A DNA stretch of 64,000 nucleotides from a virus (Duplodnaviria > Heunggongvirae > Uroviricota > Caudoviricetes), in IMG/VR virus record IMGVR_UViG_2795385681_000001, positions 1-64,000 of that record; one strand, given 5' to 3'. Position numbers and translations under genes: made by a program. Shown piece by piece: positions 7,147 through 40,104 of this stretch (position 1 is its first letter; the number at the start of each line of letters is the position of its first letter). Under the pieces are notes generated by a model that worked only from the letters and a program-made list of their open reading frames with translations, had not been told where the DNA came from and searched no databases.

Positions 7147-7217
7147 GCCCGGATCGTTAGTCAATCTAATCAGCTACACACCCAATCATTCAGTCTCCTG
7201 CTGTATCATCTGTGACT

Positions 7218-8609
7218 ATGCGAGCTGCTGTCTACCTGCGCCAATCCATGGACCGTGATGGCGATGGGTTGGCTGTCGAACGGCAGCGTGAAGACTGTCT
7301 GAAGATCTGCACAGACCGAGGCTGGGAGCCCACCCAGTACATCGACAACGACACCAGCGCAAGCAGGGGGCGACGCCCTTCCTATGAGCGCATGCTCTCT
7401 GACATTCGTAGCGGCCATATAGATGCGGTAGTGGCGTGGGACCTCGATCGCCTACACCGGCAGCCCAAAGAGCTGGAGCAGTTCATCGAGCTGGCCGACG
7501 AGAAACGACTCTCTCTGGCGACCGTAGGTGGTGACGCTGACCTATCCACCGACAACGGGAGGCTATTCGCGCGTATTAAGGGCGCGGTGGCCAAGGCTGA
7601 GGTGGAACGTAAGTCAGCCAGGCAGAAGCGCGCCTTCCTTCAGATGGCCCAGTCCGGCAAGGGCTGGGGCCCTCGCGCCTTCGGGTATAACGGGGACCAT
7701 GAGAAGGCGAAGATCGTTCCCAAGGAAGCTGACGCACTGCGCAGTGGGTACAAGATGCTCATGTCCGGCGAGACGCTCTACTCCATCGCGAAGAGCTGGA
7801 ACGACGCCGGTCTGAAGACGCCCCGGGGCAACCTATTCACCGGCACCACAGTGCGCAGAATCCTCCAGAATCCACGCTATACAGCCACACGCACCTACCG
7901 CAATGAAACCGTGGGAGATGGCGACTGGCCAGCGATCGTTGATGAGACGACCTGGGAAGCCGCCCACTCCATCCTCAGCGATCCGTCTCGACACCAGCCA
8001 CGCCAGGTGCGTCGATACCTACTGGGTGGACTACTCACATGTAGCGAGTGCGGGAACAAGATGGCTGTGGGTGTGCAGCACAGAAAGAACGGGAACGTTC
8101 CTATCTATCGGTGCAAGCATGTCAGCTGTGGCCGAGTAACGCGCCGTGTTGAACGGATGGATGAGTGGGTGAAAGAGCTTGTCCTACGCAGGATGTCGAG
8201 CAGGCATTGGGTTCCCGGCAATCAGGACAACCGAGAGCTAGCCCTCGAGTTGCGCGAGGAGCTCGACGCTATCAAACACCGAATGGATTCTCTAGCAGTC
8301 GATTTTGCTGAAGGCGAGCTGACCTCCAGCCAGCTGCGCATCGCCAATGAGCGACTACAGGTGAAGCTGGATGAGGTAGAGAGCAAGCTGCGGCGCACCA
8401 ATGTGAAACCACTCCCCGATGGAATACTCACCGCGAATGACCGTGGCCGCTTCTATGACGAGATGTCACTCGATGCAAGACGGGCCCTCATTGAGGCGCT
8501 ATGCGACTCGATTGTGGTGCACCCCATCGGACTCAAGGGAATGCAGGCCACCCACGCTCCGCTCGGGCACAACATCGACGTCCACTGGCACAAGCCCAGT
8601 AATGGATGA
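7218..8609 (+). CDS. int: large serine recombinase (serine integrase)
   Basis: N-terminal resolvase domain AVYLRQSMD carrying the catalytic Ser; central recombinase and zinc-ribbon (CSECG..CKHVSCGR) regions; coiled-coil C-terminus. Confidence 0.85.
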   Translation: MRAAVYLRQSMDRDGDGLAVERQREDCLKICTDRGWEPTQYIDNDTSASRGRRPSYERMLSDIRSGHIDAVVAWDLDRLHRQPKELEQFIELADEKRLSLATVGGDADLSTDNGRLFARIKGAVAKAEVERKSARQKRAFLQMAQSGKGWGPRAFGYNGDHEKAKIVPKEADALRSGYKMLMSGETLYSIAKSWNDAGLKTPRGNLFTGTTVRRILQNPRYTATRTYRNETVGDGDWPAIVDETTWEAAHSILSDPSRHQPRQVRRYLLGGLLTCSECGNKMAVGVQHRKNGNVPIYRCKHVSCGRVTRRVERMDEWVKELVLRRMSSRHWVPGNQDNRELALELREELDAIKHRMDSLAVDFAEGELTSSQLRIANERLQVKLDEVESKLRRTNVKPLPDGILTANDRGRFYDEMSLDARRALIEALCDSIVVHPIGLKGMQATHAPLGHNIDVHWHKPSNG

Positions 8610-10045: not shown

Positions 10046-10728
10046 CCGAAATTCCGATCGACATAAACCTGGTTCTGTGGTCGGATGAAGTCCGAATCCG
10101 CTGGTGGCATGTCCGATTCAGTGATACGGATCAGCAGACGCCAACCACGCTCGGTGGCTTGCGATGCCTGGTGAATGTTCCACCAATCCCACGAGTACCA
10201 AACAGCTTCTTGCGCAACCAGCTTCCGTAGAGTGGTGCACCCGTCAATCCGGCGAGTCATCTCCGAGTACATCTGCTCGTCTTCGTCGTGCTCAATTGGC
10301 AAGTGCATCAGGCCGTCGATGAATACAGTTGGGCAGTCGTTACCAACATGCAGAGTGTGGTAGCGCGGGTAATAGCCCTCAAGGGACCGATCATTCTGCA
10401 GCGGCAGGGACGGCATGCCCCAATTCGCCGGGTTCACAGTCTTGTCTGTCACGCTGTAGCGCGGAACCCCATCGGTATGCCACCCGGGAATCGCAGGCCA
10501 CCACCCGGGCATCAGCATCGACACCTTTGTGTCCACCGTGATGTGCCTGTGGTCCCCCACAATTGGGGCCGACTGCAGGAGCTGACGCAGAAATGGGCCA
10601 CCGAATAGCACCGCGTTGGACAGGCTGGCGCGGCGCAGGTTTGGCGTCCCCTCGATCAGGCCAGGGGGATCTGAATACGCTTGGGATCCAATGACCACCG
10701 GGTTGCGGTTGAACCAGTATGTGGTCAC
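10039..10728 (-). CDS. hypothetical protein (229 aa)
   Basis: Long ORF in the minus-strand operon; no recognised motif. Confidence 0.55.
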   Translation of the reverse strand: MTTYWFNRNPVVIGSQAYSDPPGLIEGTPNLRRASLSNAVLFGGPFLRQLLQSAPIVGDHRHITVDTKVSMLMPGWWPAIPGWHTDGVPRYSVTDKTVNPANWGMPSLPLQNDRSLEGYYPRYHTLHVGNDCPTVFIDGLMHLPIEHDEDEQMYSEMTRRIDGCTTLRKLVAQEAVWYSWDWWNIHQASQATERGWRLLIRITESDMPPADSDFIRPQNQVYVDRNFGW

Positions 10729-11078
10729 AGTAGCTTCAACTCCCCTGTGATCGGAGCGAGCTCTTCAACCGTTGCAGGTCCAATAGCGCAACACGTGGTC
10801 GTCAAGATGCCATGGAATTCGGTCTTACCGTTATCCGTAATCAGCGCGTTTGGGAGGTTGGCTTTAATTGCCTTGCCCCAGAGGTCAATCAGTGCGTCTT
10901 CGCTCTCCACCCGCACACAGACCTTCGTGAACGAACCGGCGAGCCACTCGACCACCCGTGGGTCATCGCGGTACTCGAGAACGGCACCCAGAGAGGCGTG
11001 AGCACCTTGTGAAACCATCTTCCCGGCACGCATGCCGAGATCCTTACGCATGATAATCATTTGCTTCAGTTCACTCAT
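10725..11078 (-). CDS. pth2: peptidyl-tRNA hydrolase, PTH2 family
   Basis: MIIMRKDLGMRAGKMVSQGAHA matches the PTH2 aminoacyl-tRNA hydrolase N-terminus. Confidence 0.75.
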   Translation of the reverse strand: MSELKQMIIMRKDLGMRAGKMVSQGAHASLGAVLEYRDDPRVVEWLAGSFTKVCVRVESEDALIDLWGKAIKANLPNALITDNGKTEFHGILTTTCCAIGPATVEELAPITGELKLL

Positions 11079-11888: not shown

Positions 11889-13115
11889 CTAGGTTCCCTT
11901 CACATTCAGTATCTGGCGCAGCTCAGTTACAACCTCAACCAGAGGCTCCGCGTCTTTCATCACCTGATCGATCGGCTTGTAACAGGAAGGGATCTCGTCA
12001 ATCCACTGCTCACCATGCCGGTACTCAATGCCCTGCATCTGCTCAGCCAAGTCCTCAAGGGTGAAGAGCTCCTTGGCCTTTGTTCGCGAGAATCGCCTCC
12101 CGGCACCATGCGGAGCAGAGAACAGGCCATCCTTGTTGCCCCGACCCCGGACCACATAGGAGCGTGTCCCCATCGAACCGGGGATAAGCCCCAGCTTCCC
12201 CTCCGACGCATCGATCGCGCCCTTCCGGGTCAGCCATACCTTCCGCCCGTCGATTTCAGTCGCAACCGTGTAGTTGTGGTGGCAGTTCACGCGATCGAGC
12301 TCGACGCGTTGGGATTGAACGCCAAGCCAATCCGCAAAGACCCGGACGTAGCGGTCCATCATCTCGGCACGGTTGTCGTAGGCGAACTGTTGGGCCCACC
12401 TCAAGTCCTTGATGTAGCGGTCGAACTCGCACGTGCCCTCGGAGAGGTATGCGAGATCCTTGTTCGCTACAGGCTCCGCGATGCCATAGCGCTGGTGCTT
12501 CACCAGTTGGTTCTGCGCAGCCTTGATGTGCTTCTGCGCGATCTTGTTGCCAACACCGCGACTGCCGGAGTGCAGGAACAACCACACCGTGTCGTCAGAG
12601 TCCAGGCACAGCTCAATGAAGTGGTTCCCACCGCCGAGAGACCCCAATTGCTCCATCCACTTCGGGGAGTGCGAGAGGTCAACGTTCAGCTCATTCTGGA
12701 GCTGAATCAGTCCCTCAATACGCTTGCGTGTGAACGGGAATCGCTTCGTGTCAGCGTTGTAGTTGCCTGGGGATAGTGGGATCGCCTCTTCTATCGCGAC
12801 GCGCAGGCGGGACAGATGACTCTTGTACGCACCGTCGAAGCGCTCCAGCAGGTTGCACTCAGTGAACCGAGTCTTCACCGCGATCATGCCGCATCCAATG
12901 TCCACGCCTACCGCAGCAGGTATGACAGCGCCAACGGTTGGGATCACGGTGCCAACAGCAGAACCCTTGCCCGAGTGTGCATCCGGCATCAGTGCCATAT
13001 GGGGGTAGATGAACGGCAACGTCGCCGTCTCTTTGGCCTGCTCGATCGTCGTGTAGTCGATCTCCGAGGCGAACGAAATGATGTTGTCGCCAATCCGCTG
13101 GCTCAATTCCTTCAT
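11889..13115 (-). CDS. rtcB: RNA-splicing ligase RtcB
   Basis: 408 aa with the RtcB signature (PDAHSGKGSAVGTVIPT, GNHFIELC, SGSRGVGN, the HNY motif). Confidence 0.9.
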   Translation of the reverse strand: MKELSQRIGDNIISFASEIDYTTIEQAKETATLPFIYPHMALMPDAHSGKGSAVGTVIPTVGAVIPAAVGVDIGCGMIAVKTRFTECNLLERFDGAYKSHLSRLRVAIEEAIPLSPGNYNADTKRFPFTRKRIEGLIQLQNELNVDLSHSPKWMEQLGSLGGGNHFIELCLDSDDTVWLFLHSGSRGVGNKIAQKHIKAAQNQLVKHQRYGIAEPVANKDLAYLSEGTCEFDRYIKDLRWAQQFAYDNRAEMMDRYVRVFADWLGVQSQRVELDRVNCHHNYTVATEIDGRKVWLTRKGAIDASEGKLGLIPGSMGTRSYVVRGRGNKDGLFSAPHGAGRRFSRTKAKELFTLEDLAEQMQGIEYRHGEQWIDEIPSCYKPIDQVMKDAEPLVEVVTELRQILNVKGT

Positions 13116-13140
13116 GTACCAATCGTATTGAGCCTCTTGG

Positions 13141-13154
13141 GGTTCATGTGGGTA
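13141..13154 (+). promoter_or_regulatory. 14-bp repeat GGTTCATGTGGGTA (copy at the RtcB start)
   Basis: Exact match. The minus strand reads TACCCACATGAACC, giving an 11-codon mini-ORF MNPKRLNTIGT* whose TGA overlaps the RtcB ATG. Confidence 0.6.
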
Positions 13155-13156
13155 CG

Positions 13157-13185
13157 AAAAAAGCCCCCAGCTTTCGCTGAGGGCT
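13157..13185 (-). terminator. stem-loop with a T-run between the tRNA array and rtcB
   Basis: Minus strand reads gccctcagcgaaagctgggggc followed by TTTTTT. Confidence 0.5.
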
Positions 13186-13193
13186 CTTCCGAG

Positions 13194-13264
13194 TAGTCCA
13201 TGCGGGAATCAAACCCGCACCAACACCTTGAGAGGGTGGTGTGCTCTCACTACACCAATGGACC
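13194..13264 (-). tRNA. tRNA (anticodon not resolved)
   Basis: T-arm gcggg-TTTGATT-cccgc (minus sense) with a complementary acceptor. Confidence 0.45.
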
Positions 13265-13270
13265 TAAGGG

Positions 13271-13609
13271 TTATCGCTCAACCCACGTGCCGGATTCGCG
13301 AACCTCGGTCTTGAGGTTCACCGGCCACATATCACGCTCCACCTGGGCACGCTGTAGGTCTTCACGACCAACCTGACGTTTCACCCATAGCTGGAACTTC
13401 GGCGAGCTCGCCATACGCTTGAACGCGGCCTGCTTGTTCTGCAGCTGGCTACGCTCCTCGCGCGACTCACCCACAGCACCGGACGGTTCATGCGTGATCC
13501 GCACACCCGTCTCGCGCTTGTTCTGGTTTTGACCGCCCTTGCCCCCAGACCGGAATGTGTCAACACGACAATCCGCGAGGGTGACAGACACTACTCGTTC
13601 TCTACTCAC
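13271..13609 (-). CDS. arfB: ArfB-like peptidyl-tRNA hydrolase / ribosome rescue factor (RF-1 GGQ domain)
   Basis: FRSGGKGGQNQNKRETGVRITHEPSG carries the GGQ motif of class I release factors and ArfB (YaeJ); basic C-terminal tail. Confidence 0.7.
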   Translation of the reverse strand: MSRERVVSVTLADCRVDTFRSGGKGGQNQNKRETGVRITHEPSGAVGESREERSQLQNKQAAFKRMASSPKFQLWVKRQVGREDLQRAQVERDMWPVNLKTEVRESGTWVER

Positions 13610-13610
13610 G

Positions 13611-13683
13611 TCAAGTCGACGGGATTTGAACCCGCGTCTTCCGCCTCGACAGGGCGACGCTCTGGACCTCTAAGCTACGACTC
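13611..13683 (-). tRNA. tRNA-Asp (GTC)
   Basis: Cloverleaf parsed by hand: acceptor cgagtcg/cgacttg, anticodon loop ctGTCga, T-loop TTCAAAT. Confidence 0.7.
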
Positions 13684-13794
13684 GATACGCCGTTTTCCGC
13701 ACGCCGGTTTTCGAGACCGACGCGCCAGGGTGGACGGCACCCTGAGCAGACTTTCTGGGAATCAAACCCTGGAGCAGCTCTGCAAAAACTCCCG

Positions 13795-13866
13795 TGGAGA
13801 ATCGGGGAATCGAACCCCGGACGCTGGTGTGCAAAACCAGTGCTTTACCAACTAAGCTAAATCCCC
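13795..13866 (-). tRNA. tRNA-Ala (TGC)
   Basis: Acceptor GGGGATT with the G3:U70 identity pair; D-arm gcttagttggtaaagc; anticodon loop ttTGCac; T-loop TTCGATT. Confidence 0.75.
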
Positions 13867-13892
13867 ATCTAAGCTTCAGGAAGGACATATTT

Positions 13893-14321
13893 ATGAAGCT
13901 CAACCGCATTACTGAACTGGTAGCCAACTCGGCTCACCTGGACGGCCTATCCAACAAGATCCTTAAGCACGCTGACGCGGTCGAGGTCTTAGAATCCGGT
14001 GTCCTTAAGGTTATTTCGCGCTCCGTCCACGATGACGCTACTTGCGAAGACAGCCTTTACCTGGCTCCAGGCGAATGGAAGTCGTTCGCTCAAAGGGGCA
14101 CAACCGTGGTGATCGAGTCCGAGGTCCAAGTCTTTGACTTCGAGATGGGCCTCTCAACCGAAGGCTGCGTCAACTTCGTAGCCGCGTACTTTGAACGAGC
14201 TGAAGGTTACGATCCAGATAACGCTCGCGACCTCGCTCGCGAGGTGGTCTACAACCAGCCGGTTGGTAAGGTCTATGGGTCCAACAAGGTCAAGTTTAGG
14301 TTCGTTTCGAACCCGAACTAG
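13893..14321 (+). CDS. hypothetical protein (142 aa) inside the tRNA array on the opposite strand
   Basis: Strong RBS aggaagga before ATG 13893; clean ORF; listed ORF 13794..14321 trimmed. Confidence 0.5.
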   Translation: MKLNRITELVANSAHLDGLSNKILKHADAVEVLESGVLKVISRSVHDDATCEDSLYLAPGEWKSFAQRGTTVVIESEVQVFDFEMGLSTEGCVNFVAAYFERAEGYDPDNARDLAREVVYNQPVGKVYGSNKVKFRFVSNPN

Positions 14322-14347
14322 TCCTCCACGGATCCAACTACCTACGA

Positions 14348-14420
14348 GCCGCATCGAGGTCTCGAACCCCGTACCTCTTCGTTACTAAGGAAGCGCTCTA
14401 GCCTGATGAGCTAATGCGGC
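14348..14420 (-). tRNA. tRNA-Thr (AGT), tentative anticodon
   Basis: Acceptor GCCGCAT/ATGCGGC perfect; D-arm gctcatcaggctagagc; T-loop TTCGAGA. Confidence 0.6.
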
Positions 14421-14425
14421 AAAGT

Positions 14426-14495
14426 ACCTTGCGAGAGAATTGAACTCCCATCCTCGGGGTGTAAACCCGGTGCCCTTCCGTTGGACGAGCAAGGC
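14426..14495 (-). tRNA. tRNA-Val (TAC), tentative
   Basis: T-arm gagag-TTCAATT-ctctc; acceptor gccttgc/gcaaggt; anticodon loop ttTACac. Confidence 0.5.
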
Positions 14496-14621
14496 ATATG
14501 AGCTTTTGGTTGAGGGTGCCCATGCTGCAGCGAGAGGTCCCTGGCGGATGCTCTATCCGCGCACAAGCTTCCGGCGACAACCGAGGTCTCCACCGTAGGG
14601 TCGCCCATCCCAGGGCGTCGA

Positions 14622-14694
14622 ACGAGTGACCAGATTCGAACTGGCACGATCTGTTTGGAAGACAGAGATGCTAACCGTTAAACATCACACTCGC
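14622..14694 (-). tRNA. tRNA-Gly (TCC)
   Basis: T-loop TTCGAAT; anticodon stem tctgt/acaga with loop ctTCCaa. Confidence 0.6.
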
Positions 14695-14699
14695 ATGGA

Positions 14700-14765
14700 G
14701 CGGCAGAGGTGACTCGAACACCCTTGCAGCGGCTTAGGAGGCCACGCACTTTCCGGAACTACCGC
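14700..14765 (-). tRNA. short tRNA-like gene, possibly Arg (CCT)
   Basis: T-arm gggtg-TTCGAGT-cacct, acceptor gcggtag/ctgccgc, but only about 66 nt with a reduced D-arm. Confidence 0.3.
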
Positions 14766-14770
14766 TTGGT

Positions 14771-14841
14771 AGGTTCGCACAGAATTGAACTGTGATTGCC
14801 GACGTATCAGATCGGTGTCCTTACCGTTGGACGACGAACCA
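14771..14841 (-). tRNA. tRNA-Ile (GAT)
   Basis: T-arm cacag-TTCAATT-ctgtg; D-arm gtccaacggtaaggac; anticodon loop ctGATac. Confidence 0.65.
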
Positions 14842-14843
14842 GT

Positions 14844-14914
14844 GGGTCTGGTAGGACTCGAACCTACGTCTCCGACTTAAGAGGACGGAGCTAAACCATC
14901 TCAGCTACAAACCC
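14844..14914 (-). tRNA. tRNA-Lys (CTT)
   Basis: T-arm gtagg-TTCGAGT-cctac; anticodon loop ctCTTaa. Confidence 0.6.
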
Positions 14915-14924
14915 ATTGTTGGTA

Positions 14925-14993
14925 GGGCGCACGGGATTTGAACCCGCAACTCATAGATTAAAAGTCTAGGGTGATTCCGTTTCACCAACGCCC
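14925..14993 (-). tRNA. tRNA-Lys (TTT), tentative
   Basis: T-arm cggg-TTCAAAT-cccg; acceptor gggcgtt/tgcgccc; anticodon loop ctTTTaa. Confidence 0.5.
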
Positions 14994-14994
14994 A

Positions 14995-15207
14995 TTAACT
15001 TGTGATCGCAGGAAACGCTACCCACACATGCGGGTGAGCCTTCCTATATCCATCGCGCCCACATGAGCGCTCAGAGTGGTATCGCTGACAGTCACTAGCT
15101 CTAACGCCGTACTCTGCTTCAACTAGGGCCCTAGCACCTTCCGGGGTGAGCTCCTTGCCCCAGGCAAGATACGAGGCCCCCGCAGCTGTCAGGCGATACT
15201 TGTTCAC
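14995..15207 (-). CDS. possible small protein (70 aa, GTG start) between tRNAs
   Basis: Listed ORF with protein-like composition (LAWGKELTPEGARALVEAEYGV); weak RBS; could be spurious. Confidence 0.25.
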   Translation of the reverse strand: MNKYRLTAAGASYLAWGKELTPEGARALVEAEYGVRASDCQRYHSERSCGRDGYRKAHPHVWVAFPAITS

Positions 15208-15209
15208 GT

Positions 15210-15283
15210 AGTCGGCGCGAGGATCGAACTCGCAGACACCGAGGTTTGAGCTCGGCGGCTTTGCCAGGTTTGCCTAGCCGACC
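15210..15283 (-). tRNA. tRNA with anticodon CAA (Leu-type) but a class I body
   Basis: T-arm gcgag-TTCGATC-ctcgc; anticodon stem ccgag/ctcgg perfect with loop ctCAAac; short variable arm. Confidence 0.5.
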
Positions 15284-15353
15284 AGGCTCGGTGTTTGATC
15301 ACGCAGCTTTACCGAAGTACTGCGGGCCCTTTCACGGGGGCCAGTCGTCGAGT

Positions 15354-15427
15354 ACTCCGAGAGGGATTCGAACCCACAACCTCCAGGGTCTAAGCCTGTC
15401 GCCTCTGCCAAATTGGGCTACCGGAGC
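15354..15427 (-). tRNA. tRNA with anticodon TAG (Leu-type) but a class I body
   Basis: Acceptor gctccgg/tcggagt; T-loop TTCGAAT; anticodon loop ctTAGac; short variable arm. Confidence 0.5.
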
Positions 15428-15531
15428 ATGGTGCCGATACTTTGTGTAGAGCGCCACCCGCTATCTGGGGTAACACGCGCCCAAGCGCCTCGGCCAACGA
15501 GGGAGTTTCACCTTATCGACGGCGCTTTGGA

Positions 15532-15602
15532 GACGAAGACCGGATTCGAACCGGTGTGGGTCAGGGTTGCAGCCTGCCAGCTAGCCACTCACTCACTTCG
15601 CC
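15532..15602 (-). tRNA. tRNA-Cys (GCA)
   Basis: T-arm accgg-TTCGAAT-ccggt perfect; anticodon loop ctGCAac. Confidence 0.6.
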
Positions 15603-15610
15603 TTGTGGTT

Positions 15611-15698
15611 GGTGTGCGCAGGAATTGAACCTGCCGGGGACCATAACGCGAGAACTCGCGCTGCGGACTCGAACCGCCCTCTCACCGAGAGACACACC
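15611..15698 (-). tRNA. tRNA-like region with two T-arm motifs (class II tRNA or tRNA plus fragment)
   Basis: gcagg-AATTGAA-cctgc and gcgg-ACTCGAA-ccgc on the + strand lie within 88 nt; no single cloverleaf resolved. Confidence 0.3.
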
Positions 15699-15715
15699 AG
15701 GTTCGATGCTATCCC

Positions 15716-15879
15716 CTATTCTGCGGCTGGGGCGACCTTCTTAGCCGGTGCCTTCTTAGGCGCTGGCTTCTCTTCAACCGCGTAGTTGAAGTCCTCGAGA
15801 TTGGCAACTCGGGAGATCAGATCATTGACGGCATCGACTACCGGCTTCGGCGCGATTCCGCTCTTCAGAAATTCAGTCA
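15716..15879 (-). CDS. small Lys/Ala/Pro-rich protein (54 aa, GTG start) inside the tRNA array
   Basis: RBS aaagggtag before the GTG; protein VTEFLKSGIAPKPVVDAVNDLISRVANLEDFNYAVEEKPAPKKAPAKKVAPAAE with a histone-like tail; below the ORF-track cutoff. Confidence 0.3.
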
Positions 15880-15904
15880 CTACTACCCTTTCCAAGGTTG
15901 AACG

Positions 15905-15974
15905 TCCCTATGCACGGTTACGATCCGTGGTCGCCGGGGTCACATCCCGGAGCTCTGCCATTGAGCTACACAAG
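15905..15974 (-). tRNA. tRNA-His (GTG) with an unusual T-loop
   Basis: Canonical D-arm GCTCAATGGCAGAGC; anticodon stem ccggg/cccgg with loop atGTGac; T-arm cacgg-ATCGTAA-ccgtg. Confidence 0.5.
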
Positions 15975-16082
15975 GTATGGAGCAAGTGGCCATGGTGTCC
16001 CACATCTGACGGGCTGCGGTAACCGACGCGTGGCTGTGGCATTCCATGTTTATCCGGGCTCTCCATCACCGGCACTTGTCGA

Positions 16083-16156
16083 CCCGTTGACAGGATTCGA
16101 ACCTGCATGCGTTGCGCCTTCGTAGGGCGGTGGGCGCTCCATTGCCCAACAACGGG
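16083..16156 (-). tRNA. tRNA-Arg (ACG)
   Basis: Acceptor cccgttg/caacggg perfect; T-loop TTCGAAT; anticodon loop ctACGaa. Confidence 0.65.
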
Positions 16157-16217
16157 ATTGGAGCCGCATTGGTGCTAGGCTGCGGCGGGCCTAACCAGGT
16201 GCCCCTGGATTTTGCGT

Positions 16218-16291
16218 GGCGGGGGTGGGATTTGAACCCACGGTCTCTGACTTATGAGGACAGCGAGATGGCCGAACTTCTCTACCCCGAC
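16218..16291 (-). tRNA. tRNA-Met (CAT)
   Basis: T-arm gtggg-TTCAAAT-cccac perfect; anticodon loop ctCATaa. Confidence 0.6.
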
Positions 16292-16412
16292 ATGAGACTC
16301 ATTCCGATAGGACAGTTCATCGCCTACCGTATCCGCGCGAGTCGACGCGACCGTTTACGTGGAGTGCCCGGTTTTTCACCAGTAACCGTGGAAGCTGGTT
16401 TCCCTTACACGC

Positions 16413-16486
16413 CGGATCGCTTGGAGTCGAACCAAGGCCCTCTCGGGTTTCAACCGAGCGCTCTCACCAAACTGAGCTACGAACCG
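16413..16486 (-). tRNA. tRNA-Phe (GAA)
   Basis: D-arm gctcagtttggtgagagc; anticodon stem ctcgg/ccgag perfect with loop ttGAAac; T-arm cttgg-TTCGACT-ccaag. Confidence 0.75.
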
Positions 16487-16781
16487 ATTTTTGTTAGAGG
16501 CTGAGAGTACACCTGCTATCGAGAACCTTTGCGGCATTATTGATTCGCCACTTCTCCACGTCATTCCTGAACGTAGTTCTCACGCCCGGTCGGTTACGCC
16601 AACCACTCGTCATGCCGAAAGCTACTCCGCGACTTTGGTTTCGCGATGGGATGGCCGTCCCATCGTTGCGCTACTTGTCTACGAACCACCGTCGCCTTGC
16701 GAGCTCGTGATGGCCCTGGTTCCCGAAGGCCAGGGATTAGAGGCGCTTTTGCTCCTCGGCAGGGGAAGGACTTTTGCTTTT

Positions 16782-16851
16782 ATTGACGACGGGAATCGAA
16801 CCCGCACATCCTGTTCCATATACAGGTGGCCTGCCGTTGGCCTACGTCATT
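16782..16851 (-). tRNA. tRNA (anticodon ambiguous, loop atATGga)
   Basis: T-arm cggg-TTCGATT-cccg; D-arm ggccaacggcaggcc; anticodon stem cctgt/acagg perfect. Confidence 0.5.
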
Positions 16852-17292
16852 CTCGCAGCGGAGAATGATTTGACTGAAGACGTGCTTCCCCATGAAGTTC
16901 CGAACCCTTTTGGGGCACAGAATGCTTCACGTCTCTCGCGCTTTCGCCTGGCGGGGCTAATAACACTCTCTCTCAACCGCATTGCGAGCCGTCACCCGAC
17001 GCGAGATCGATCATGGAAAACGCCCTTGCTTGCGAGGTTCGGACTCAGTTCCCTCCGCTCCACAGGAGGCTTGTTCAATAGCGCTTTCCACCGCACGACG
17101 GCTTGGTAGTCCCACCGGTTCACGGCCCTGGACTCACGCGTAACTCGCCACCTGGCAGCCATCTCTGACTGCTCAAGGATTGGATTGCATGGATTGCCCT
17201 TGCGGGTGGTGGGTTGTCACCCCACCTTTCACCACCTTGCGGTGACTTATGGGCCATGCCCCGAATGTCTAAACAATATCCCCCACAACAGA

Positions 17293-17305
17293 GTTCGTGT
17301 GGGTG
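17293..17305 (+). promoter_or_regulatory. variant copy of the 14-bp repeat (GTTCGTGTGGGTG) in the intra-array spacer
   Basis: 12/13 match to GTTCATGTGGGTG. Confidence 0.4.
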
Positions 17306-17378
17306 ACCCTGGCGTGCGTTAGCCAACCACCGGGGCCAGACAGATCGTGGGGCCGTAGCCGCAGGATCCGTACTTTGC

Positions 17379-17460
17379 GGAGAGGCAGGTATTCGAAACC
17401 TACTGCGAGCAGCGATCCGGTTAGCAACCGGGCCTAGTCACCTGACTAGTTGCGCTCTCC
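17379..17460 (-). tRNA. tRNA-Ser (GCT), class II
   Basis: 82 nt; anticodon stem ccgg/ccgg with loop ttGCTaa; long variable arm; T-arm aggt-TTCGAAT-acct. Confidence 0.65.
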
Positions 17461-17541
17461 AAAATCCACCCCTTCGGCGTCAACACTGGACTCGACGCAC
17501 CTGTATTCACTCTTAGCCATGGCCAGGCGGGTGGAGAACGA

Positions 17542-17625
17542 GGAAGGTAGAGGAATCGAACCCCCGAGTTTTCAGGCTCGCCCCGGTATTCGACGCCGGT
17601 TGCCGACCATTCAGCGGTGCCTTCC
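17542..17625 (-). tRNA. class II tRNA, probably Ser (CGA)
   Basis: 84 nt; T-arm ggggg-TTCGATT-cctct; acceptor ggaaggc/accttcc; anticodon loop gtCGAat; tentative. Confidence 0.45.
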
Positions 17626-17706
17626 ATATGCCCCATTTTGATAACGCAACTGGAGCTACTGCGGACAGTCAACTCATGGCAGGTACCTACCGGTTGACCC
17701 AAACGC

Positions 17707-17777
17707 TGACGACCCTGGATTCGAACCAAGAACTGCGAAGTTCAGAGCTTCGTGTGTTGCCGTTACACCAATCGTCA
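17707..17777 (-). tRNA. tRNA-Gln (CTG)
   Basis: D-arm gtgtaacggcaacac; anticodon stem cgaag/cttcg perfect with loop ctCTGaa; T-loop TTCGAAT. Confidence 0.7.
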
Positions 17778-17857
17778 AAGCTGAGACTGGCCTTGCGGGC
17801 AGTGGAACGTTTCTGCTTGCCGCAAGCCTTCAGTTCGTTCCACACCAGTCTCATTGT

Positions 17858-17933
17858 CTCGCCGTCAGGAGTCGAACCTGCACACCCAAAGGAACAGATT
17901 TACAGTCTGCGTTGATCGCCTATTCGCGACGAG
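17858..17933 (-). tRNA. tRNA-Tyr (GTA)
   Basis: T-arm gcagg-TTCGACT-cctga; anticodon loop ctGTAaa; extended variable region. Confidence 0.55.
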
Positions 17934-18011
17934 ATTGGAGGCACATCTTTTGCAGTGATGTGCCAATTCGTCTGGCCCACAATCGGATAGCTACTCCACT
18001 GTCGACGGCGC

Positions 18012-18082
18012 TGGCCTACCTGGACTCGAACCAGGAGTCAGGGATTAACAGTCCCACGGTTTGCCGATTAACCGACAGGCCA
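18012..18082 (-). tRNA. tRNA-Asn (GTT)
   Basis: T-arm cctgg-TTCGAGT-ccagg perfect; D-arm ggttaatcggcaaacc; anticodon loop ctGTTaa. Confidence 0.7.
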
Positions 18083-18288
18083 AGACCTCGGATATTTCAC
18101 GTCGATACCGAGGATAGGACGGACACCTTTCGCGGTCTCCCGCTCAGCTGTCAAGCTGGCCCAGATTCTCCCGACCTCACGGGTTAGCTCTGTGGCAGGC
18201 GCTTAGGTCTACTTCCCACCATGGTGACGCTAGGTGGGCGTAGCGGACAGTTCCCTTCTCGTGGAGGTGTACTGACAACCCGTCCCGT

Positions 18289-18358
18289 CAAGCTGGGAGG
18301 AATTGAACCTCCACCACCGGTACCCAAAACCGGCATGATCCCGTTTCACTACAGCCTG
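18289..18358 (-). tRNA. tRNA-Pro (TGG)
   Basis: T-arm ggagg-TTCAATT-cctcc perfect; anticodon stem ccggt/accgg perfect with loop ttTGGgt. Confidence 0.7.
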
Positions 18359-18642
18359 ATTGATGAACGACACGGCCCAGGTACGGCACCTCAGATCGGT
18401 GGCGGTTAGGCCCCTACTGCGGGATTACCCTGTCGTTCATTTGACCATCAGCATCCCGATGGCCGCGCGGAGATGTCTCTCCACATTCCCCGTAAGAACC
18501 GCTCCGTTCCGAGCGCTACTCGTACTTGGTTCTGGTTATGCGAGCCGGGGCCACGCGTCGTTTAACGAGGGTGCTCTGCCACTGAGCTACGGCCAGGGGG
18601 CTCCCCTAGCTGACCGGGATCGAACCGGCAACCTCCCTCTCG

Positions 18643-19007
18643 TGGAGCTGTGCGGAATTGAACCGCAGTCTTACGCTTCTCTTCACTGCCTTCTACGTGC
18701 GTAGTGATTTGGCTGCTTCTATACCGCTGCCCTACACAAAGCGGTTCGTCGGGCTTGCCACCGACGCTGCGTCACTTGCGCTGTTAGCCTCTGCGTAGTG
18801 TTTCTTCGTCACCTTTGAGGGTTCCCCGTATTGGCGACGGTGGATTGGTACACGGAACGGGTAAACCGTTATACCCCACCGGACTATGCCGCTAGGACGT
18901 AGTCGGACTGATGAGCGTTTGCGCTTATCAAGGTTGCACTGTTACGGGCGTTGCTTCCCGGCACGCTTCTCAGTAAGTTGACACGCAATCGAATGCCTGT
19001 CAGCCCC
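18643..19007 (-). ncRNA. ssrA: tmRNA (SsrA), about 365 nt, encoding tag peptide ANAHQSDYVLAA
   Basis: Minus-strand 5' end GGGGCTGACAGGCATTCGA pairs with 3' end GCGGTTCAATTCCGCACAGCTCCA (tRNA-like domain). Internal ORF GCAAACGCTCATCAGTCCGACTACGTCCTAGCGGCATAG gives A-N-A-H-Q-S-D-Y-V-L-A-A-stop, close to the mycobacterial tag ADSHQRDYALAA. Confidence 0.75.
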
Positions 19008-19063
19008 ATTGAAACTACTATCTCTATGGAGTTTTCAAATGTCATGCCACACAGGGGCATTGC

Positions 19064-19133
19064 ACGGGTGGAGAGAATCGAACTCCCACTAACGGGTTTG
19101 GAATCCGTTGTCCTACCTTTGGACCACACCCAT
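19064..19133 (-). tRNA. tRNA-Trp (CCA)
   Basis: T-arm gggag-TTCGATT-ctctc; anticodon loop ttCCAaa; first gene after the upstream motif and terminator. Confidence 0.65.
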
Positions 19134-19187
19134 ATCACCAGGTTTTCGGGCTCTGGTAGCCCCTCTTGCTGTACCGAGTCTATGGCC

Positions 19188-19201
19188 TACCCACATGAAC
19201 C
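19188..19201 (-). promoter_or_regulatory. 14-bp repeat (minus strand reads GGTTCATGTGGGTA) just upstream of the tRNA/tmRNA array
   Basis: Exact TACCCACATGAACC on the + strand, between the terminator at 19209-19247 and tRNA-Trp; position fits a promoter for the array. Confidence 0.55.
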
Positions 19202-19208
19202 TCCACGG

Positions 19209-19247
19209 AATAAAAATGGGCCCCGATCCGCTGAGGAACCGGGGCCC
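19209..19247 (-). terminator. rho-independent terminator after gene 19268..19448
   Basis: Minus strand: ggccccggttcctcagcggatcggggcc followed by CATTTTTATT. Confidence 0.65.
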
Positions 19248-19267
19248 AAACGCCGTGAAGTCAGTGC

Positions 19268-19448
19268 TTACTGCTTGGTTGGGAAAGTTCCATCATCAGC
19301 CGGAATGGTGCCGTTCCACCATCCATGAGCCTTCGCCTGTGACCACTTGTCGCGGTCAGCCGACCCATAAATGGCCTCAACCACCTGCGAGCGGAAGAGA
19401 TCCGCCTGCGGGGTACCGGCCACTGGCTTGTTGGTCTGGTTAGCCATT
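19268..19448 (-). CDS. hypothetical protein (60 aa)
   Basis: ATG with RBS aaggac (MANQTNKPVAG...); listed ORF 19268..19486 trimmed. Confidence 0.4.
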
Positions 19449-19524
19449 TGAGAGTCCTTGCGTGAAAGTCTTTGATGCACAGACACTGTGCTTACACATT
19501 AATGATAGCACGTGTTTGCTGGCT

Positions 19525-19842
19525 CTATTCTCGCCAGTTACGCGAGGTGGGGTGTTTGACCTTCTTCTTGGCCTTCCCGCCTCGGCGCTGGTTGCAAACC
19601 AGATGGCAGGGAACGAGATTCGAAACGTCGTAGCACAACGGGTCGTCCCACGCGAGATCTTTCACGGGGATAATATGGTCAACGGTCGCGCTCTTAGGAT
19701 CGGGCCATGGAAGGGTTAGGTCGATGATTTCATGGCACTCGTCGCAGATCTGGTTCGCCCGTAGTACTCGGGCTTTCGCCTTGTCGAACTTGACTCCAGT
19801 GCGACCGAGAGAGCGCGGGCCGTTCTTCGATGAAGTCGGCAA
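19525..19842 (-). CDS. HNH endonuclease
   Basis: CDECHEIID..DHIIP..CHLVCNQRRG HNH motifs. Confidence 0.7.
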   Translation of the reverse strand: MPTSSKNGPRSLGRTGVKFDKAKARVLRANQICDECHEIIDLTLPWPDPKSATVDHIIPVKDLAWDDPLCYDVSNLVPCHLVCNQRRGGKAKKKVKHPTSRNWRE

Positions 19843-19863
19843 TGGGTTCCTCTACCCATTATC

Positions 19864-20076
19864 TCACGATCTGTCAGCTTCACTCTCCGCATCGCTGTAG
19901 CCCATGTCGTATCCCTCGTCGTACCCGGTGTCATAACCGCGCCGGTAATCAGGCCCCCTAGTGCTACTAAGGCTGTGTGACAGGTCTTCCCAACGAAGCT
20001 GCTCTTCGTGCTCCAGCTCGTACCAGTACTTCGAACCGCATGGACGCCATAGGTCATAGATCTCAGAGCCAGTCAT
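19864..20076 (-). CDS. hypothetical acidic protein (70 aa)
   Basis: Listed ORF with GYD-repeat acidic C-terminus. Confidence 0.4.
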   Translation of the reverse strand: MTGSEIYDLWRPCGSKYWYELEHEEQLRWEDLSHSLSSTRGPDYRRGYDTGYDEGYDMGYSDAESEADRS

Positions 20077-38869: not shown

Positions 38870-39304
38870 TTGGCTATGGGAATTGCTTACACGCCCGCTC
38901 GTTCAGCATCCATCGAGTACAAAGCCGAGTCGGGCATGATTCCGTGTTCTGCCGTAGCCACGTCAGCACGGCAGAACGAGTGGACCATATCGATTGGCGA
39001 CGTTCACCGCTTCATCCTTTCCGGGAATCGAAGCAAGGCCGAGGAGCTAGTGCAGGCATACGGCGAGCTCTACGACTTCGCGTTTACCGCTCCCGTCAAA
39101 CCACGTGAGCTCCAGAGGCTGGACTGCGACGAAGCCCGCGACGGCACGGTTTGGGCTGACTCGGATGAGGGGTTCCCTTTCCACTACCAATTCCGTGGAC
39201 ATCATTGGGAATACTTCGCCCTCGAAGGTGTCCGCAAGTGGACGGTGCTGGACGACCCGGACACGCTAACCAGCCATGGCCCTTACACAGAGGTAGTTAA
39301 GTGA
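38870..39304 (+). CDS. hypothetical protein (144 aa), first gene of the rightward operon
   Basis: Listed ORF. Confidence 0.5.
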   Translation: MAMGIAYTPARSASIEYKAESGMIPCSAVATSARQNEWTISIGDVHRFILSGNRSKAEELVQAYGELYDFAFTAPVKPRELQRLDCDEARDGTVWADSDEGFPFHYQFRGHHWEYFALEGVRKWTVLDDPDTLTSHGPYTEVVK

Positions 39305-40104
39305 GCCACCACTCCCCTCGACATAGGGAGATCGCATCGAGAGGTCTGATTCTCCTCACCGAGGTTGGATCCGGTCTGCATGGTGTGACTCTCGCCAACA
39401 CTGACGACCATGACGAGATGGGCGTTTGCATCCCACCACCGGAATGCGTGCTGGGACTGGAGAAGTTCGAGCAGTACGCCGATCGCTGGCACGCTGATGG
39501 TACTCGCATTCCCGATGGTGTGCGTAGCCAGCACGGGGACACTGACCACACGACGTACGCACTGAACAAGTGGGCACGCCTTGCGGCGCAGGGTAATCCG
39601 ACTGTGCTACCGCCGTTGTTCGCACCACCCAAATCCATCTACCACAAGTCCCCAGAAGGCCAACAGATCGTATCTAACCGGAATCTGTTCCTCTCCAAGG
39701 ACGCTGGGTGGAGGTTCCATGGGTACCTCAAGGATCAGCGCGCACGTATGGTCGGCGAGAAGGGTAAGTCCAAGCACAAGAACCGCCACGAGCTGGTCGA
39801 GCAGTTCGGTTTCGATACCAAGATGGCGTACCACGCTCTTCGCTTGGCCGTCCAAGGTGCGCAACTAATGACGCACCACAACATCACCATCCCGATGCAT
39901 GCGATCGATGTGACGTGGCTACGCGCAGTTCGACGCGGTGATTACGCGCTGGAAACGGTTACCGAATGGCTGGACACCTACACCGAAGGCCTTGAGGCCA
40001 ACATCGAAACGTCCACGCTGCCTGATCACGTCGACCACGACCAACTGAACGACTTTCTCATCGGCCTGCACTACAGCTTCTGGAAACGCACGGGACAACT
40101 TTGA
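39301..40104 (+). CDS. pol-beta-superfamily nucleotidyltransferase-domain protein
   Basis: GSGLHGVTLANTDDHDEMGV fits the GS-x(9-11)-DxD nucleotidyltransferase motif; GTG start overlapping the upstream stop. Confidence 0.5.
   Translation: MSHHSPRHREIASRGLILLTEVGSGLHGVTLANTDDHDEMGVCIPPPECVLGLEKFEQYADRWHADGTRIPDGVRSQHGDTDHTTYALNKWARLAAQGNPTVLPPLFAPPKSIYHKSPEGQQIVSNRNLFLSKDAGWRFHGYLKDQRARMVGEKGKSKHKNRHELVEQFGFDTKMAYHALRLAVQGAQLMTHHNITIPMHAIDVTWLRAVRRGDYALETVTEWLDTYTEGLEANIETSTLPDHVDHDQLNDFLIGLHYSFWKRTGQL

Follow-up and report, generated by a model that had tools for sequence, protein, structure and literature searches.

We describe here a cluster of transfer RNA (tRNA) genes in a stretch of 64,000 nucleotides of phage DNA, positions 1 to 64,000 of the IMG/VR record IMGVR_UViG_2795385681_000001 (Caudoviricetes), which as a whole is called the window below. 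Between 13193 and 19133 it holds 24 credible tRNA genes, one marginal Arg(CCU)-like gene, a transfer-messenger RNA (tmRNA) and four small protein genes. One of the protein genes (13893-14321) is on the plus strand, and everything else is on the minus strand. In our opinion it is highly probable that this region is a tRNA array unit of the type named "G1" (Morgado & Vicente 2018), that it belongs to a temperate Cluster-M-like mycobacteriophage (subfamily Mclasvirinae), and that it likely serves to keep translation going when host tRNAs are scarce or cleaved.

A tRNA array unit, in the definition of Tran et al. (2016) as quoted by Morgado & Vicente (2018), has at least 20 tRNA genes in one region and at least 2 per kb. 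Here the number of tRNAs is 22 with ARAGORN at its default settings and 25 at its 90% threshold, and the density is 4.2 per kb (25 genes in 5.94 kb). The default run over the 64-kb window gave, apart from the 22 tRNAs, one tmRNA; every one of these genes is on the minus strand and within 13193-19133. The gathering score of the Rfam tRNA model is reached by 20 of the 22, and by 21 with laxer filters. The 90% threshold adds three genes with a long variable arm, Ser(GCU), Ser(CGA) and Tyr(GUA), and the 80% threshold adds the marginal Arg(CCU)-like cloverleaf. Genes of the long-variable-arm kind tend to escape the general Rfam tRNA model.

Read along the minus strand, the array begins just downstream of a hairpin that resembles an intrinsic terminator and closes the upstream gene. 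Then follow tRNA-Trp, the tmRNA, a permuted tRNA-like module, a conserved RNA domain of about 200 nucleotides, the tRNAs for Pro, Asn, Tyr and Gln and two for Ser, a GOLLD RNA of about 770 nucleotides, 16-17 more tRNAs with three small protein genes between them, a gene for a GGQ/RF-1 domain, and finally tRNA-Glu. Directly after the array there are genes for an RtcB ligase, a SLOG-domain protein and the peptidyl-tRNA hydrolase Pth2. The array genes follow each other closely on one strand, 0-300 nucleotides apart. The G+C content (GC) of the array is 0.57, the same as in the remaining window, which is even throughout (0.57-0.60).

The closest records are prophages of M. abscessus (Mycobacteroides), namely prophiT49-2, prophiGD54-2 and prophi86-1, followed by the Cluster M phages Rey, PegLeg, Bongo, Estes, Reindeer and Nanosmite; Cluster M is a group of mycobacteriophages that was reportedly described in 2014. 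The best match is prophiT49-2, with 89% identity over 69% of the array and a gene order that agrees almost gene for gene. Compared with it, the window lacks the Glu(UUC) gene and has an insertion of 480 bp which bears the plus-strand gene. Across the relatives the order of tRNAs is largely kept, with Trp and the tmRNA at one end and Glu and RtcB at the other, except for the position of GOLLD and a few tRNAs.

The G1 group comprises arrays of the M. abscessus complex, M. chelonae and Cluster M phages; it is characterized by a core gene with an RF-1 domain, a tmRNA and a structured RNA of about 430 nucleotides, its prophages are PegLeg-like, and its GC is the lowest of the groups (Morgado & Vicente 2018). 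The window has all of this: the RF-1-domain core coding sequence, the tmRNA together with the ~430-nucleotide structured RNA, and a PegLeg/Cluster-M-like prophage of the M. abscessus-chelonae group. It further resembles the G1 arrays of Bongo, PegLeg and Rey in carrying more than 20 tRNAs on a single strand with a density of about 4 per kb, in having the tmRNA close to the beginning, and in its HNH endonucleases in the vicinity, its RtcB flank and its GC of 57%. Thus the type of array is already known (Morgado & Vicente 2018; Morgado 2020; Behra 2019), and the copy in the window is a further, mosaic member of it.

The first-pass annotation of this DNA had already recognized that this is a tRNA array of a phage, that it includes a tmRNA and is interrupted by protein genes, and that it has spacers which are not tRNA, and ARAGORN, Rfam and Pfam bear it out on each of these points. 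It had counted at least 26 minus-strand tRNAs. Indeed there are 26 tRNA-shaped genes, but one of them, 'His(ATG)' at 16781-16851, belongs to GOLLD, as discussed below. Its estimate of at least 19 amino acid specificities was on the low side, since the anticodon set covers 20 of 20 amino acids; Glu and Leu had been left out of the list. The three protein genes which it named do exist (13893-14321 on the plus strand, 14995-15207, and 15716-15879, the last of them one base off, as we place it at 15716-15880), while the RF-1/GGQ gene at 13271-13609 within the same span had not been listed.

The tRNA and tmRNA genes

The genes and the hairpin ahead of them are, in the order of the minus strand:

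19217-19248, minus strand: intrinsic-terminator-like hairpin, stem of 13 bp and U tract
19062-19133, minus strand: tRNA-Trp(CCA), first gene of the array (ARAGORN; Rfam, 57.8 bits)
18642-19007, minus strand: tmRNA (ARAGORN; Rfam RF00023, 92 bits against a threshold of 47)
18287-18358, minus strand: tRNA-Pro(UGG) (ARAGORN, Rfam)
18010-18082, minus strand: tRNA-Asn(GUU) (ARAGORN, Rfam)
17856-17933, minus strand: tRNA-Tyr(GUA), long variable arm (ARAGORN at 90%, missed at default thresholds; tRNA-Sec model, 24.3 bits)
17705-17777, minus strand: tRNA-Gln(CUG) (ARAGORN, Rfam)
17540-17625, minus strand: tRNA-Ser(CGA), long variable arm, two mismatched stem ends (ARAGORN at 90%; tRNA-Sec model, 25.3 bits)
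17377-17460, minus strand: tRNA-Ser(GCU), long variable arm, irregular D arm (ARAGORN at 90%)
16411-16486, minus strand: tRNA-Phe(GAA), beginning 11 nucleotides past the 3' end of GOLLD (ARAGORN, Rfam)
16216-16291, minus strand: tRNA-Met(CAU) (ARAGORN, Rfam)
16081-16156, minus strand: tRNA-Arg(ACG) (ARAGORN, Rfam)
15904-15975, minus strand: tRNA-His(GUG) (ARAGORN, Rfam)
15606-15699, minus strand: tRNA-Ser(CGA)-like gene of 94 nucleotides, acceptor stem of 8 bp, long variable arm, encoded CCA (ARAGORN; tRNA-Sec model, 23.8 bits)
15528-15602, minus strand: tRNA-Cys(GCA) (ARAGORN, Rfam)
15352-15427, minus strand: tRNA-Leu(UAG), 76 nucleotides (ARAGORN, Rfam)
15208-15283, minus strand: tRNA-Leu(CAA), 76 nucleotides (ARAGORN; Rfam with laxer filters)
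14920-14994, minus strand: tRNA-Lys(UUU) (ARAGORN, Rfam)
14842-14914, minus strand: tRNA-Lys(CUU) (ARAGORN, Rfam)
14767-14841, minus strand: tRNA-Ile(GAU) (ARAGORN, Rfam)
14697-14767, minus strand: marginal tRNA-Arg(CCU)-like gene, weak D and T arms (ARAGORN at 80%)
14620-14694, minus strand: tRNA-Gly(UCC) (ARAGORN, Rfam)
14424-14495, minus strand: tRNA-Val(UAC) (ARAGORN, Rfam)
14346-14420, minus strand: tRNA-Thr(AGU) (ARAGORN, Rfam)
13794-13866, minus strand: tRNA-Ala(UGC) (ARAGORN, Rfam)
13610-13684, minus strand: tRNA-Asp(GUC) (ARAGORN, Rfam)
13193-13264, minus strand: tRNA-Glu(CUC), last gene of the array (ARAGORN, Rfam)

Most of the tRNAs, and also the tmRNA, are preceded at their 5' ends by YCAAU, CAUAU or CCAUA. 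Most array tRNAs end with N73-C-G and have no encoded CCA, which is found only in Ile, Lys(UUU), Cys and the 94-nucleotide Ser-like gene. Some of the less regular genes have counterparts in the relatives: Tyr(GUA) is annotated at the corresponding position in prophiT49-2, and Ser(gct) at that in PegLeg and Reindeer; the 94-nucleotide gene is 92% identical in prophiT49-2, where it is unannotated. The Arg(CCU)-like element occupies precisely a gap of 72 nucleotides; its conservation is 100% in two prophages and 88% in Rey and Estes, and in phage Nanosmite it bears the annotation tRNA-Arg(cct). Two further peculiarities deserve mention. Both tRNA-Leu genes lack the long variable arm that is usual in bacterial tRNA-Leu, being just 76 nucleotides long, and the anticodon AGU of tRNA-Thr is that of an isoacceptor rare in bacteria.

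As to the tmRNA, its presence had been claimed before, and the RF00023 score, the tRNA-like ends with a G3-U70 pair in the acceptor stem, and a reading frame for the tag (ANAHQSDYVLAA) are all there; CCA is not encoded. ARAGORN at 90% also proposes a second, two-piece (permuted) tmRNA at 17977-18735. We reject this candidate: it overlaps two good tRNA genes, the Rfam permuted-tmRNA model matches it only partially (24-31 bits), no plausible tag frame was seen, and the permuted tRNA-like module in this place has a true D stem.

GOLLD and its internal tRNA-like domain

The largest RNA of the array belongs to GOLLD, a family that was reportedly described in 2009. Two features are concerned:

16498-17267, minus strand: GOLLD RNA of about 770 nucleotides; the part at 16498-16937 matches the Rfam RF02032 model, and 16938-17267, possibly extending to about 17306, is the 5' domain
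16781-16851, minus strand: tRNA-like domain in the variable linker of GOLLD, called 'tRNA-His(ATG)' by ARAGORN (Rfam alignment)

The match to RF02032 has 203 bits (threshold 150, E 1e-56) and covers model positions 1-416, i.e., the full model. The conserved block runs about 330 nucleotides further upstream, to about 17267, and is contiguous with the Rfam match in all 32 matching records of Cluster M and M. abscessus prophages; a 39-nucleotide extension to about 17306 is common to the close prophages. An RNAalifold consensus of ten homologues gives 72 pairs in this 5' domain, 36 of them with compensatory change. Given the Rfam match and a contiguous 5' domain that is both conserved and covarying, the GOLLD gene is therefore about 770 nucleotides long, which is the usual GOLLD size. 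All seven relatives tested reach or exceed the Rfam threshold as well.

Other properties of the family are also present: a large size (about 800 nucleotides), a conserved 3' domain with a structured and more variable 5' domain, a prophage site beside tRNAs, and a tRNA-like insert in the linker. What differs from known GOLLD RNAs is that the internal tRNA-like domain has no conserved anticodon. The position of GOLLD in the array differs too: it lies between Ser(GCU) and Phe in the window, and between Asn and Ala, Tyr or Gln in Cluster M.

The internal domain keeps the D and T arms and has no free acceptor end. Its anticodon loop varies among homologues, from AUAUGGA in the window to UAUUGGAA (8 nucleotides), UUGGAAU, UUUAGGA and AUUGAGA in others, and it is degenerate in PegLeg; this variation explains why the relatives annotate the domain as tRNA-OTHER, Gln, Ser or Leu. 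Judged by these sequence features, 'tRNA-His(ATG)' is a structural domain of GOLLD and not a decoding tRNA. This is in line with Behra et al. (2019), who found GOLLD with an internal pseudo-tRNA in a mycobacterial tRNA cluster; GOLLD was expressed in M. aubagnense, while a separate pseudo-tRNA was undetected. GOLLD is widespread in Mycobacterium tRNA arrays, according to the title of Morgado et al. (2020). The marine GOLLD env-38 forms a 14-mer RNA cage, and tRNAs occur in the linker of GOLLD (Kretsch 2025). By analogy with this solved structure, the GOLLD of the window probably forms a multimeric cage too, with the tRNA-like domain in the linker.

A separate observation concerns the annotation of the relatives, whose loci we designate by L numbers. 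Genes for "hypothetical proteins" lie on the covarying 5' domain of GOLLD at L018 5899-6042 (PEGLEG_94), L017 6988-7131, L019 5927-6043 and L020 2674-2817. The second "tRNA-Asn" of PegLeg (gp93, L018 6141-6212) lies on the same domain and is unsupported by the Rfam tRNA model. All of these are probably annotation artefacts.

A permuted tRNA-like module and the other spacers

Three more spacer elements are conserved:

18560-18642, minus strand: circularly permuted tRNA-like cloverleaf, abutting the 3' end of the tmRNA (fold; covariation in 9 copies; covariance model R1, 63.9 bits)
18359-18566, minus strand: 'D domain', a conserved RNA of about 200 nucleotides (conservation and covariation; no Rfam match)
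18083-18286, minus strand: spacer 5' of tRNA-Asn, the last ~123 nucleotides of which (18083-18205) are 'element C' (conservation; no Rfam match)

The module is a four-way junction which starts 3 nucleotides past the discriminator of the tmRNA. It consists of a closing stem GAGGG/CCCUC, a 5-nucleotide variable loop, a T arm GCCGG-UUCGAUC-CCGGU, a closed acceptor-like hairpin of 8-10 bp, then U8-A9 and a D arm GCUC-AGUGGCA-GAGC. In the modelled fold it is thus a tRNA cloverleaf that is circularly permuted at the anticodon loop and has its acceptor end sealed.

Copies of this module also stand after the tmRNA of the three prophages and of Rey, PegLeg, Reindeer and Nanosmite, with an insertion of 60-70 nucleotides in the acceptor hairpin of the prophi86-1 and Cluster M copies. 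In an alignment of nine copies, with the acceptor apex replaced by AAAA, 93.5% of cells are paired, compared to 30-49% with the partners slid; the segments were chosen with guidance from the structure, which favours this structure somewhat. In fifteen of the 22 pairs both partners change, and the covariation score of the real alignment was not matched by any shuffle. A covariance model (R1) built from this alignment gives 55-68 bits for the training copies and at most 40 bits for junctions of ordinary tandem tRNAs. It found two new copies, in Estes (54.9 bits) and in Rey (46.5 bits). These two, as well as the second copy of Reindeer, start right after tRNA-Asn and run straight into the 5' end of GOLLD, so in some Cluster M phages the module directly precedes GOLLD. 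Copies outside the window are at L017 7337-7420 and 7664-7794, L019 6248-6329, L020 2104-2237 and 2421-2500, L018 6518-6651, and L021 1944-2072. The module always stands 2-3 nucleotides past the acceptor end of either the tmRNA or tRNA-Asn and always ahead of a large structured RNA, which is the D domain in the window and GOLLD in Rey, Estes and Reindeer. It is unannotated in all records examined.

The D domain has the invariant cores ACGGGGAAUGUGGAGAGACAUCUCCGCG, GGUAAUCCCGCAGUAGG and GUGCCGUACCUGGGCCG and, in an alignment of five sequences, 46 predicted pairs of which 9 are compensatory; it is seen only in M. abscessus-type prophages of about 80 kb. Element C shares 92% identity with the stretch that precedes tRNA-Asn in PegLeg, and 86-89% with the corresponding stretch in Nanosmite and prophi86-1. 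Its core GCCUGCCACAGAGCUAACCCGUGAGGUCGGGAGAAUCUGGGC is invariant, and its terminal hairpin has compensatory changes and a AGACGUNAAA loop; homologues are at L018 6294-6409, L021 2228-2315 and L016 6598-6687. Scans of IMG/VR with the invariant cores of both elements returned near-identical prophage contigs of about 80 kb only and added little covariation power.

The remaining spacers look different. Four short ones (14496-14619, 15428-15527, 15976-16080 and 16292-16410) fold no better than shuffled sequences (z from -0.9 to +0.7) and are patchy, being common only to subsets of the close relatives; we saw no evidence that they are structured RNAs. Permissive Rfam scans of 12500-20000, 18340-18680, 18060-18300 and the tmRNA-to-GOLLD interval of PegLeg gave only weak, chance-level matches in the other spacers (wcaG, mascRNA, s2m). 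Two observations should be recorded separately. The first ~50 nucleotides after tRNA-Phe (16361-16410, minus strand) are 78% conserved in Rey, Estes and PegLeg, unlike the rest of that spacer, and may be a processing or termination signal. In Estes, between tRNA-Val and tRNA-Gly (L019 2456-2491, minus strand), there is a match to the abiF RNA motif of 38.4 bits against the Rfam threshold of 37; no equivalent was seen in the Val-Gly spacer of the window.

These results bear on what the first-pass annotation had said about the spacers. It had listed seven long ones without a clean tRNA fold, and indeed none of them holds a standard tRNA. It had also called the spacers structured, which is right for GOLLD, for the spacer next to the tmRNA and for that 5' of tRNA-Asn; in four of the seven we see no indication of a conserved structure. 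Two of its entries, 16487-16781 and 16852-17378, are not separate spacers, as together they are one known RNA gene, GOLLD. The spacer at 18360-18605 contains the permuted module and a conserved domain, and both ARAGORN and the Rfam scan of the spacers returned what had been predicted.

One may ask whether the spacers that are not tRNA amount to no more than tRNA genes in decay and mosaic debris, without a function of their own. The behaviour of the four short spacers, with shuffle-like folding and occurrence in some close relatives only, fits this idea, and so does a T-arm-like remnant in the spacer 13685-13793. Moreover, the 7 nucleotides past the closing stem of the module (GUUAAAC; CUGUUAAAC in Reindeer) resemble the anticodon loop of tRNA-Asn, which hints at a descent of the module from rearranged tRNA genes. 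However, decay does not account for a GOLLD that exceeds the Rfam threshold and whose 5' domain contains 36 covarying pairs, for the module with its pairing and its two-sided changes, or for an element C that is so close to PegLeg although the arrays as a whole diverge far more. We consider functionless decay unlikely.

If the module is a functional element, a natural candidate is a Y RNA of the YrlA type, which would work with host Ro60/Rsr and PNPase in RNA quality control. The module shares with YrlA (RF02553; Chen et al. 2014) the order of the arms (T arm, closed acceptor stem, D arm), the elbow-forming GG and UUCGA loops and an occurrence in both mycobacteria and mycobacteriophages; YrlA RNAs have been described from M. 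smegmatis and from mycobacteriophages that encode Ro60. In addition, YrlA is the second-best Rfam match in this stretch (24.9 bits, E 0.003, 341 nucleotides searched), and RtcB is nearby, while in Salmonella rtcB is co-operonic with rsr and yrlA. Yet 24.9 bits is far under the RF02553 threshold of 69. The 5' motif GNCGAAN0-1G, which presumably contacts Rsr, is absent, the 5' flank of the module being the 3' end of the tmRNA (...CAGCUCCACGA) 3 nucleotides away. No Ro60/TROVE protein was found among 29 open reading frames of the window scanned against Pfam, and none is annotated around the arrays of the relatives; the published YrlA genes are at most 4 kb from Ro60 and on the same strand. Further, YrlA is a free RNA of about 100 nucleotides, whereas the module is joined to the tmRNA (or tRNA-Asn) on one side and to a large structured RNA on the other. 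Because of the low score, the missing Rsr motif and the lack of a detected Ro60/TROVE gene, we do not class the module as YrlA; that it nevertheless works as one seems to us improbable, somewhat more so than the decay of the spacers.

The other candidate is a true circularly permuted tRNA gene of the type known from the red alga Cyanidioschyzon, matured by RtcB end-joining and cutting of the acceptor stem. It is true that the 3' half precedes the 5' half, that the stems are intact and covarying, that anticodon-loop-like nucleotides (GUUAAAC) follow the closing stem, and that the RtcB gene is only about 5 kb away. On the contrary, no bulge-helix-bulge motif was seen at the module, and we know of no splicing endonuclease in bacteria, which counts against such a gene. 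Ends made by RNases P, Z and E are not joinable by RtcB. The would-be anticodon varies (UAA, UAG, AAA). On its 5' side the module has merely 2-3 nucleotides to the preceding acceptor end, and on its 3' side it runs, in several genomes, into a conserved large RNA such as GOLLD and not into a trailer. The literature search returned no bacterial or phage precedent for a permuted tRNA gene. We regard this explanation as the least probable of all those considered here, close to negligible.

Our own proposal is put forward tentatively, and it may well prove wrong: the module would be an RNA element of Cluster-M-type mycobacteriophages that has so far gone undescribed, does without Ro60 and serves as a processing cassette and as a tRNA-shaped handle, and the D domain and element C would be new families of structured RNA. 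In M. smegmatis YrlA, RNase P cuts the acceptor stem-loop and CCA is then added. If RNase P cleaved the closed acceptor hairpin of the module in a comparable manner, the RNA downstream would begin at a fixed 5' end, still base-paired with a T-arm fragment. GOLLD or the D-domain RNA would in that case bear the elbow of a tRNA, which could be recognised by ribosomes or tRNA enzymes. A full-text literature search for permuted tRNAs and phages, which did not cover Morgado 2020 and Pope 2014, returned nothing relevant; we found no description of the module and the two conserved unclassified domains, and they are possibly new, with some uncertainty.

Neighbouring proteins and the role of the array

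The protein genes that matter for the role of the array are the following:

13271-13609, minus strand: RF-1/GGQ-domain gene, 112 amino acids (PF00472, 68.8 bits; phrog_3122)
13893-14321, plus strand: orphan gene, 142 amino acids, an insertion of about 480 bp relative to prophiT49-2
14995-15207, minus strand: small open reading frame, 70 amino acids, weakly conserved (34% at the amino acid level) at the corresponding place in two prophages
15716-15880, minus strand: small protein gene, 54 amino acids from GTG (59 from TTG at 15895); phrog_26843
11889-13115, minus strand: RtcB RNA ligase (369 bits), immediately downstream of the array
10725-11078, minus strand: peptidyl-tRNA hydrolase Pth2 (domain scan)
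7212-8609: large serine integrase (Pfam scan)
39301-40104, plus strand: nucleotidyltransferase of the RlaP family (RNA-repair-associated Pol-beta), 20 kb from the array

Other genes of the window encode a Metallophos phosphoesterase, a SLOG/YAcAr protein, HNH endonucleases, a Band_7 protein, DnaB, ERF, WhiB, lysins and tail proteins including the tape-measure protein. Since the window has lysin and tail genes, that of the tape-measure protein included, as well as an integrase, it is unlikely that the DNA is a plasmid or a chromosomal island.

The 112-amino-acid protein is a release-factor GGQ domain with a tail of about 45 residues; its nearest solved relatives are domain 3 of RF1/RF2 and PrfH. 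The gene is 94-96% identical in three prophages and unannotated in Rey, PegLeg and Estes. A search with this protein, one genome per species, found a single mycobacterial array (M. palauense), the rest being unrelated loci of Firmicutes and metagenome-assembled genomes; an Rfam scan of two such non-mycobacterial loci (L004 and L005) found no GOLLD. PrfH and RtcB2 are said to be a ribosome rescue and repair pair. The window resembles this pair in having a release-factor-type GGQ gene near RtcB, with tRNA-Glu between them (11889-13609). The NCBIfam matches are partial and under the cut-offs, 54.6 against 166.65 for release_prfH and 143.4 against 271.8 for release_rtcB. Unlike PrfH, the window protein has only 112 amino acids and no domain for codon or damage recognition; in size and layout it is closer to ArfB.

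The product of 15716-15880 is 44-59% identical at the amino acid level to those of Rey, Estes and the prophages and is conserved across Cluster M at low DNA identity. The orphan has three homologue clusters, all of 142 amino acids, one from M. abscessus according to NCBI and two from assembled public sequencing runs. For two homologues, which are 84% identical, the wider context was looked at, and both occupy the same position in the array. Its known occurrences are confined to a few arrays of M. abscessus prophages. No Pfam or PHROG family and no phage tblastn match was found for it. A 56%-identical homologue stands beside a small serine resolvase (L024 168-1353, a metagenomic contig of 1.5 kb), a neighbourhood that hints at a mobile cassette.

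How could such an array work? Judging from the gene spacing, its transcripts would be long precursors, cleaved at every tRNA by RNase P and 3'-processing enzymes of the host, and the same cuts would set the ends of the tmRNA and GOLLD. As suggested by published work on phage tRNAs, the array tRNAs would then sustain phage translation when host tRNAs are limiting or cleaved by host tRNA nucleases such as VapC or MazF, of which mycobacteria have many. The known functions of the families suggest that the tmRNA, the GGQ protein and Pth2 would free stalled ribosomes and recycle peptidyl-tRNA, and that RtcB would reseal cleaved tRNA or rRNA. GOLLD, going by its homologues, probably forms its cage with the tRNA-like domain in the linker. 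This is in line with the anti-tRNase hypothesis for mycobacteriophage tRNAs, as presented by van den Berg et al. (2023), and with Yano et al. (2026), who regard tRNA arrays as putative anti-defence.

The classical explanation of phage tRNAs is codon compensation, as stated by van den Berg et al. (2023). Taken on its own, without any role in defence or RNA damage, it would mean that the array supplies the codons used more by the lower-GC phage (58%) than by its host of about 64% GC. Many anticodons indeed begin with U or A (UGC, AGU, UAC, UCC, UUU, UAG, UGG, ACG) and read A/U-ending codons, and 31% of third positions in the window genes are A or T. But the array also reads the commonest G/C-ending codons, with CUC for Glu, CUG for Gln, CUU for Lys and G34 for Asp, Asn, His, Phe and Tyr, and these are redundant with any host set. 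Moreover, the company of RtcB, Pth2, the GGQ domain and the tmRNA, with RlaP further off, points to repair and rescue of damaged translation and not to fine tuning. We find codon compensation as the only role possible but less likely than a role in sustaining translation under tRNA shortage or cleavage; as a partial explanation it is compatible with the latter.

Another use of a tRNA gene by a temperate phage is tRNA-dependent lysogeny, in which one array tRNA would replace an essential host tRNA gene destroyed on integration. It is established for mycobacteriophages of clusters K4 and L, and the phage of the window is temperate. The described mechanism needs a tyrosine integrase and an attB that overlaps a host tRNA gene, whereas this phage has a large serine integrase, and we therefore think it very unlikely here; the attachment site lies outside the 64-kb window. 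In addition, a single tRNA would do for this purpose, which leaves 25 unexplained.

The comparison with lytic phages is also instructive. In T4, T5 and the Cluster C mycobacteriophages many tRNAs are likewise clustered, often together with RNA repair enzymes, and a role against depletion or cleavage of tRNAs has been proposed for them. In contrast to these phages, that of the window is temperate, has a nearly full set of isotypes and carries GOLLD, and its genome has about 80 kb, as judged from the 78-81 kb of its closest relatives.

Several points weigh against the role in sustaining translation that we prefer. By standard wobble rules the array reads about 71% of the codons in 63 open reading frames of the window, for 20 of 20 amino acids; the remaining ~29% are unread, so the array cannot replace the host set. 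Some of its irregular tRNAs (the two 76-nucleotide Leu, Thr with AGU, and those with mismatched stems, Ser and the Arg(CCU)-like gene) may be non-functional, if their sequences are a guide. A promoter scan found sites no commoner than in shuffled sequence, and the idea of long precursors comes from the gene spacing only. The multimeric cage is established for one marine GOLLD only, which is another RNA than that of the window. Finally, the RNAs of this array are known here as predictions from DNA.

In our opinion the array adds little as such, and its role is still argued between codon supply and anti-defence. What the analysis does clarify is annotation: "tRNA-His(ATG)", "tRNA-OTHER", "tRNA-Ser" and "tRNA-Leu" are different names for one structural domain within GOLLD, several "hypothetical protein" genes of Cluster M fall on the 5' domain of GOLLD, and three long-arm tRNAs (Tyr and two Ser) escape default thresholds. 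It is also worth attention that one small region combines a full tRNA set, a tmRNA, a giant GOLLD of a cage-forming family, a tRNA mimic and at least two unclassified conserved RNAs, beside enzymes of RNA repair and ribosome rescue. The hosts M. smegmatis and M. abscessus are genetically tractable, which makes the role of GOLLD and its possible tRNA-shaped tethering to the translation machinery directly testable.

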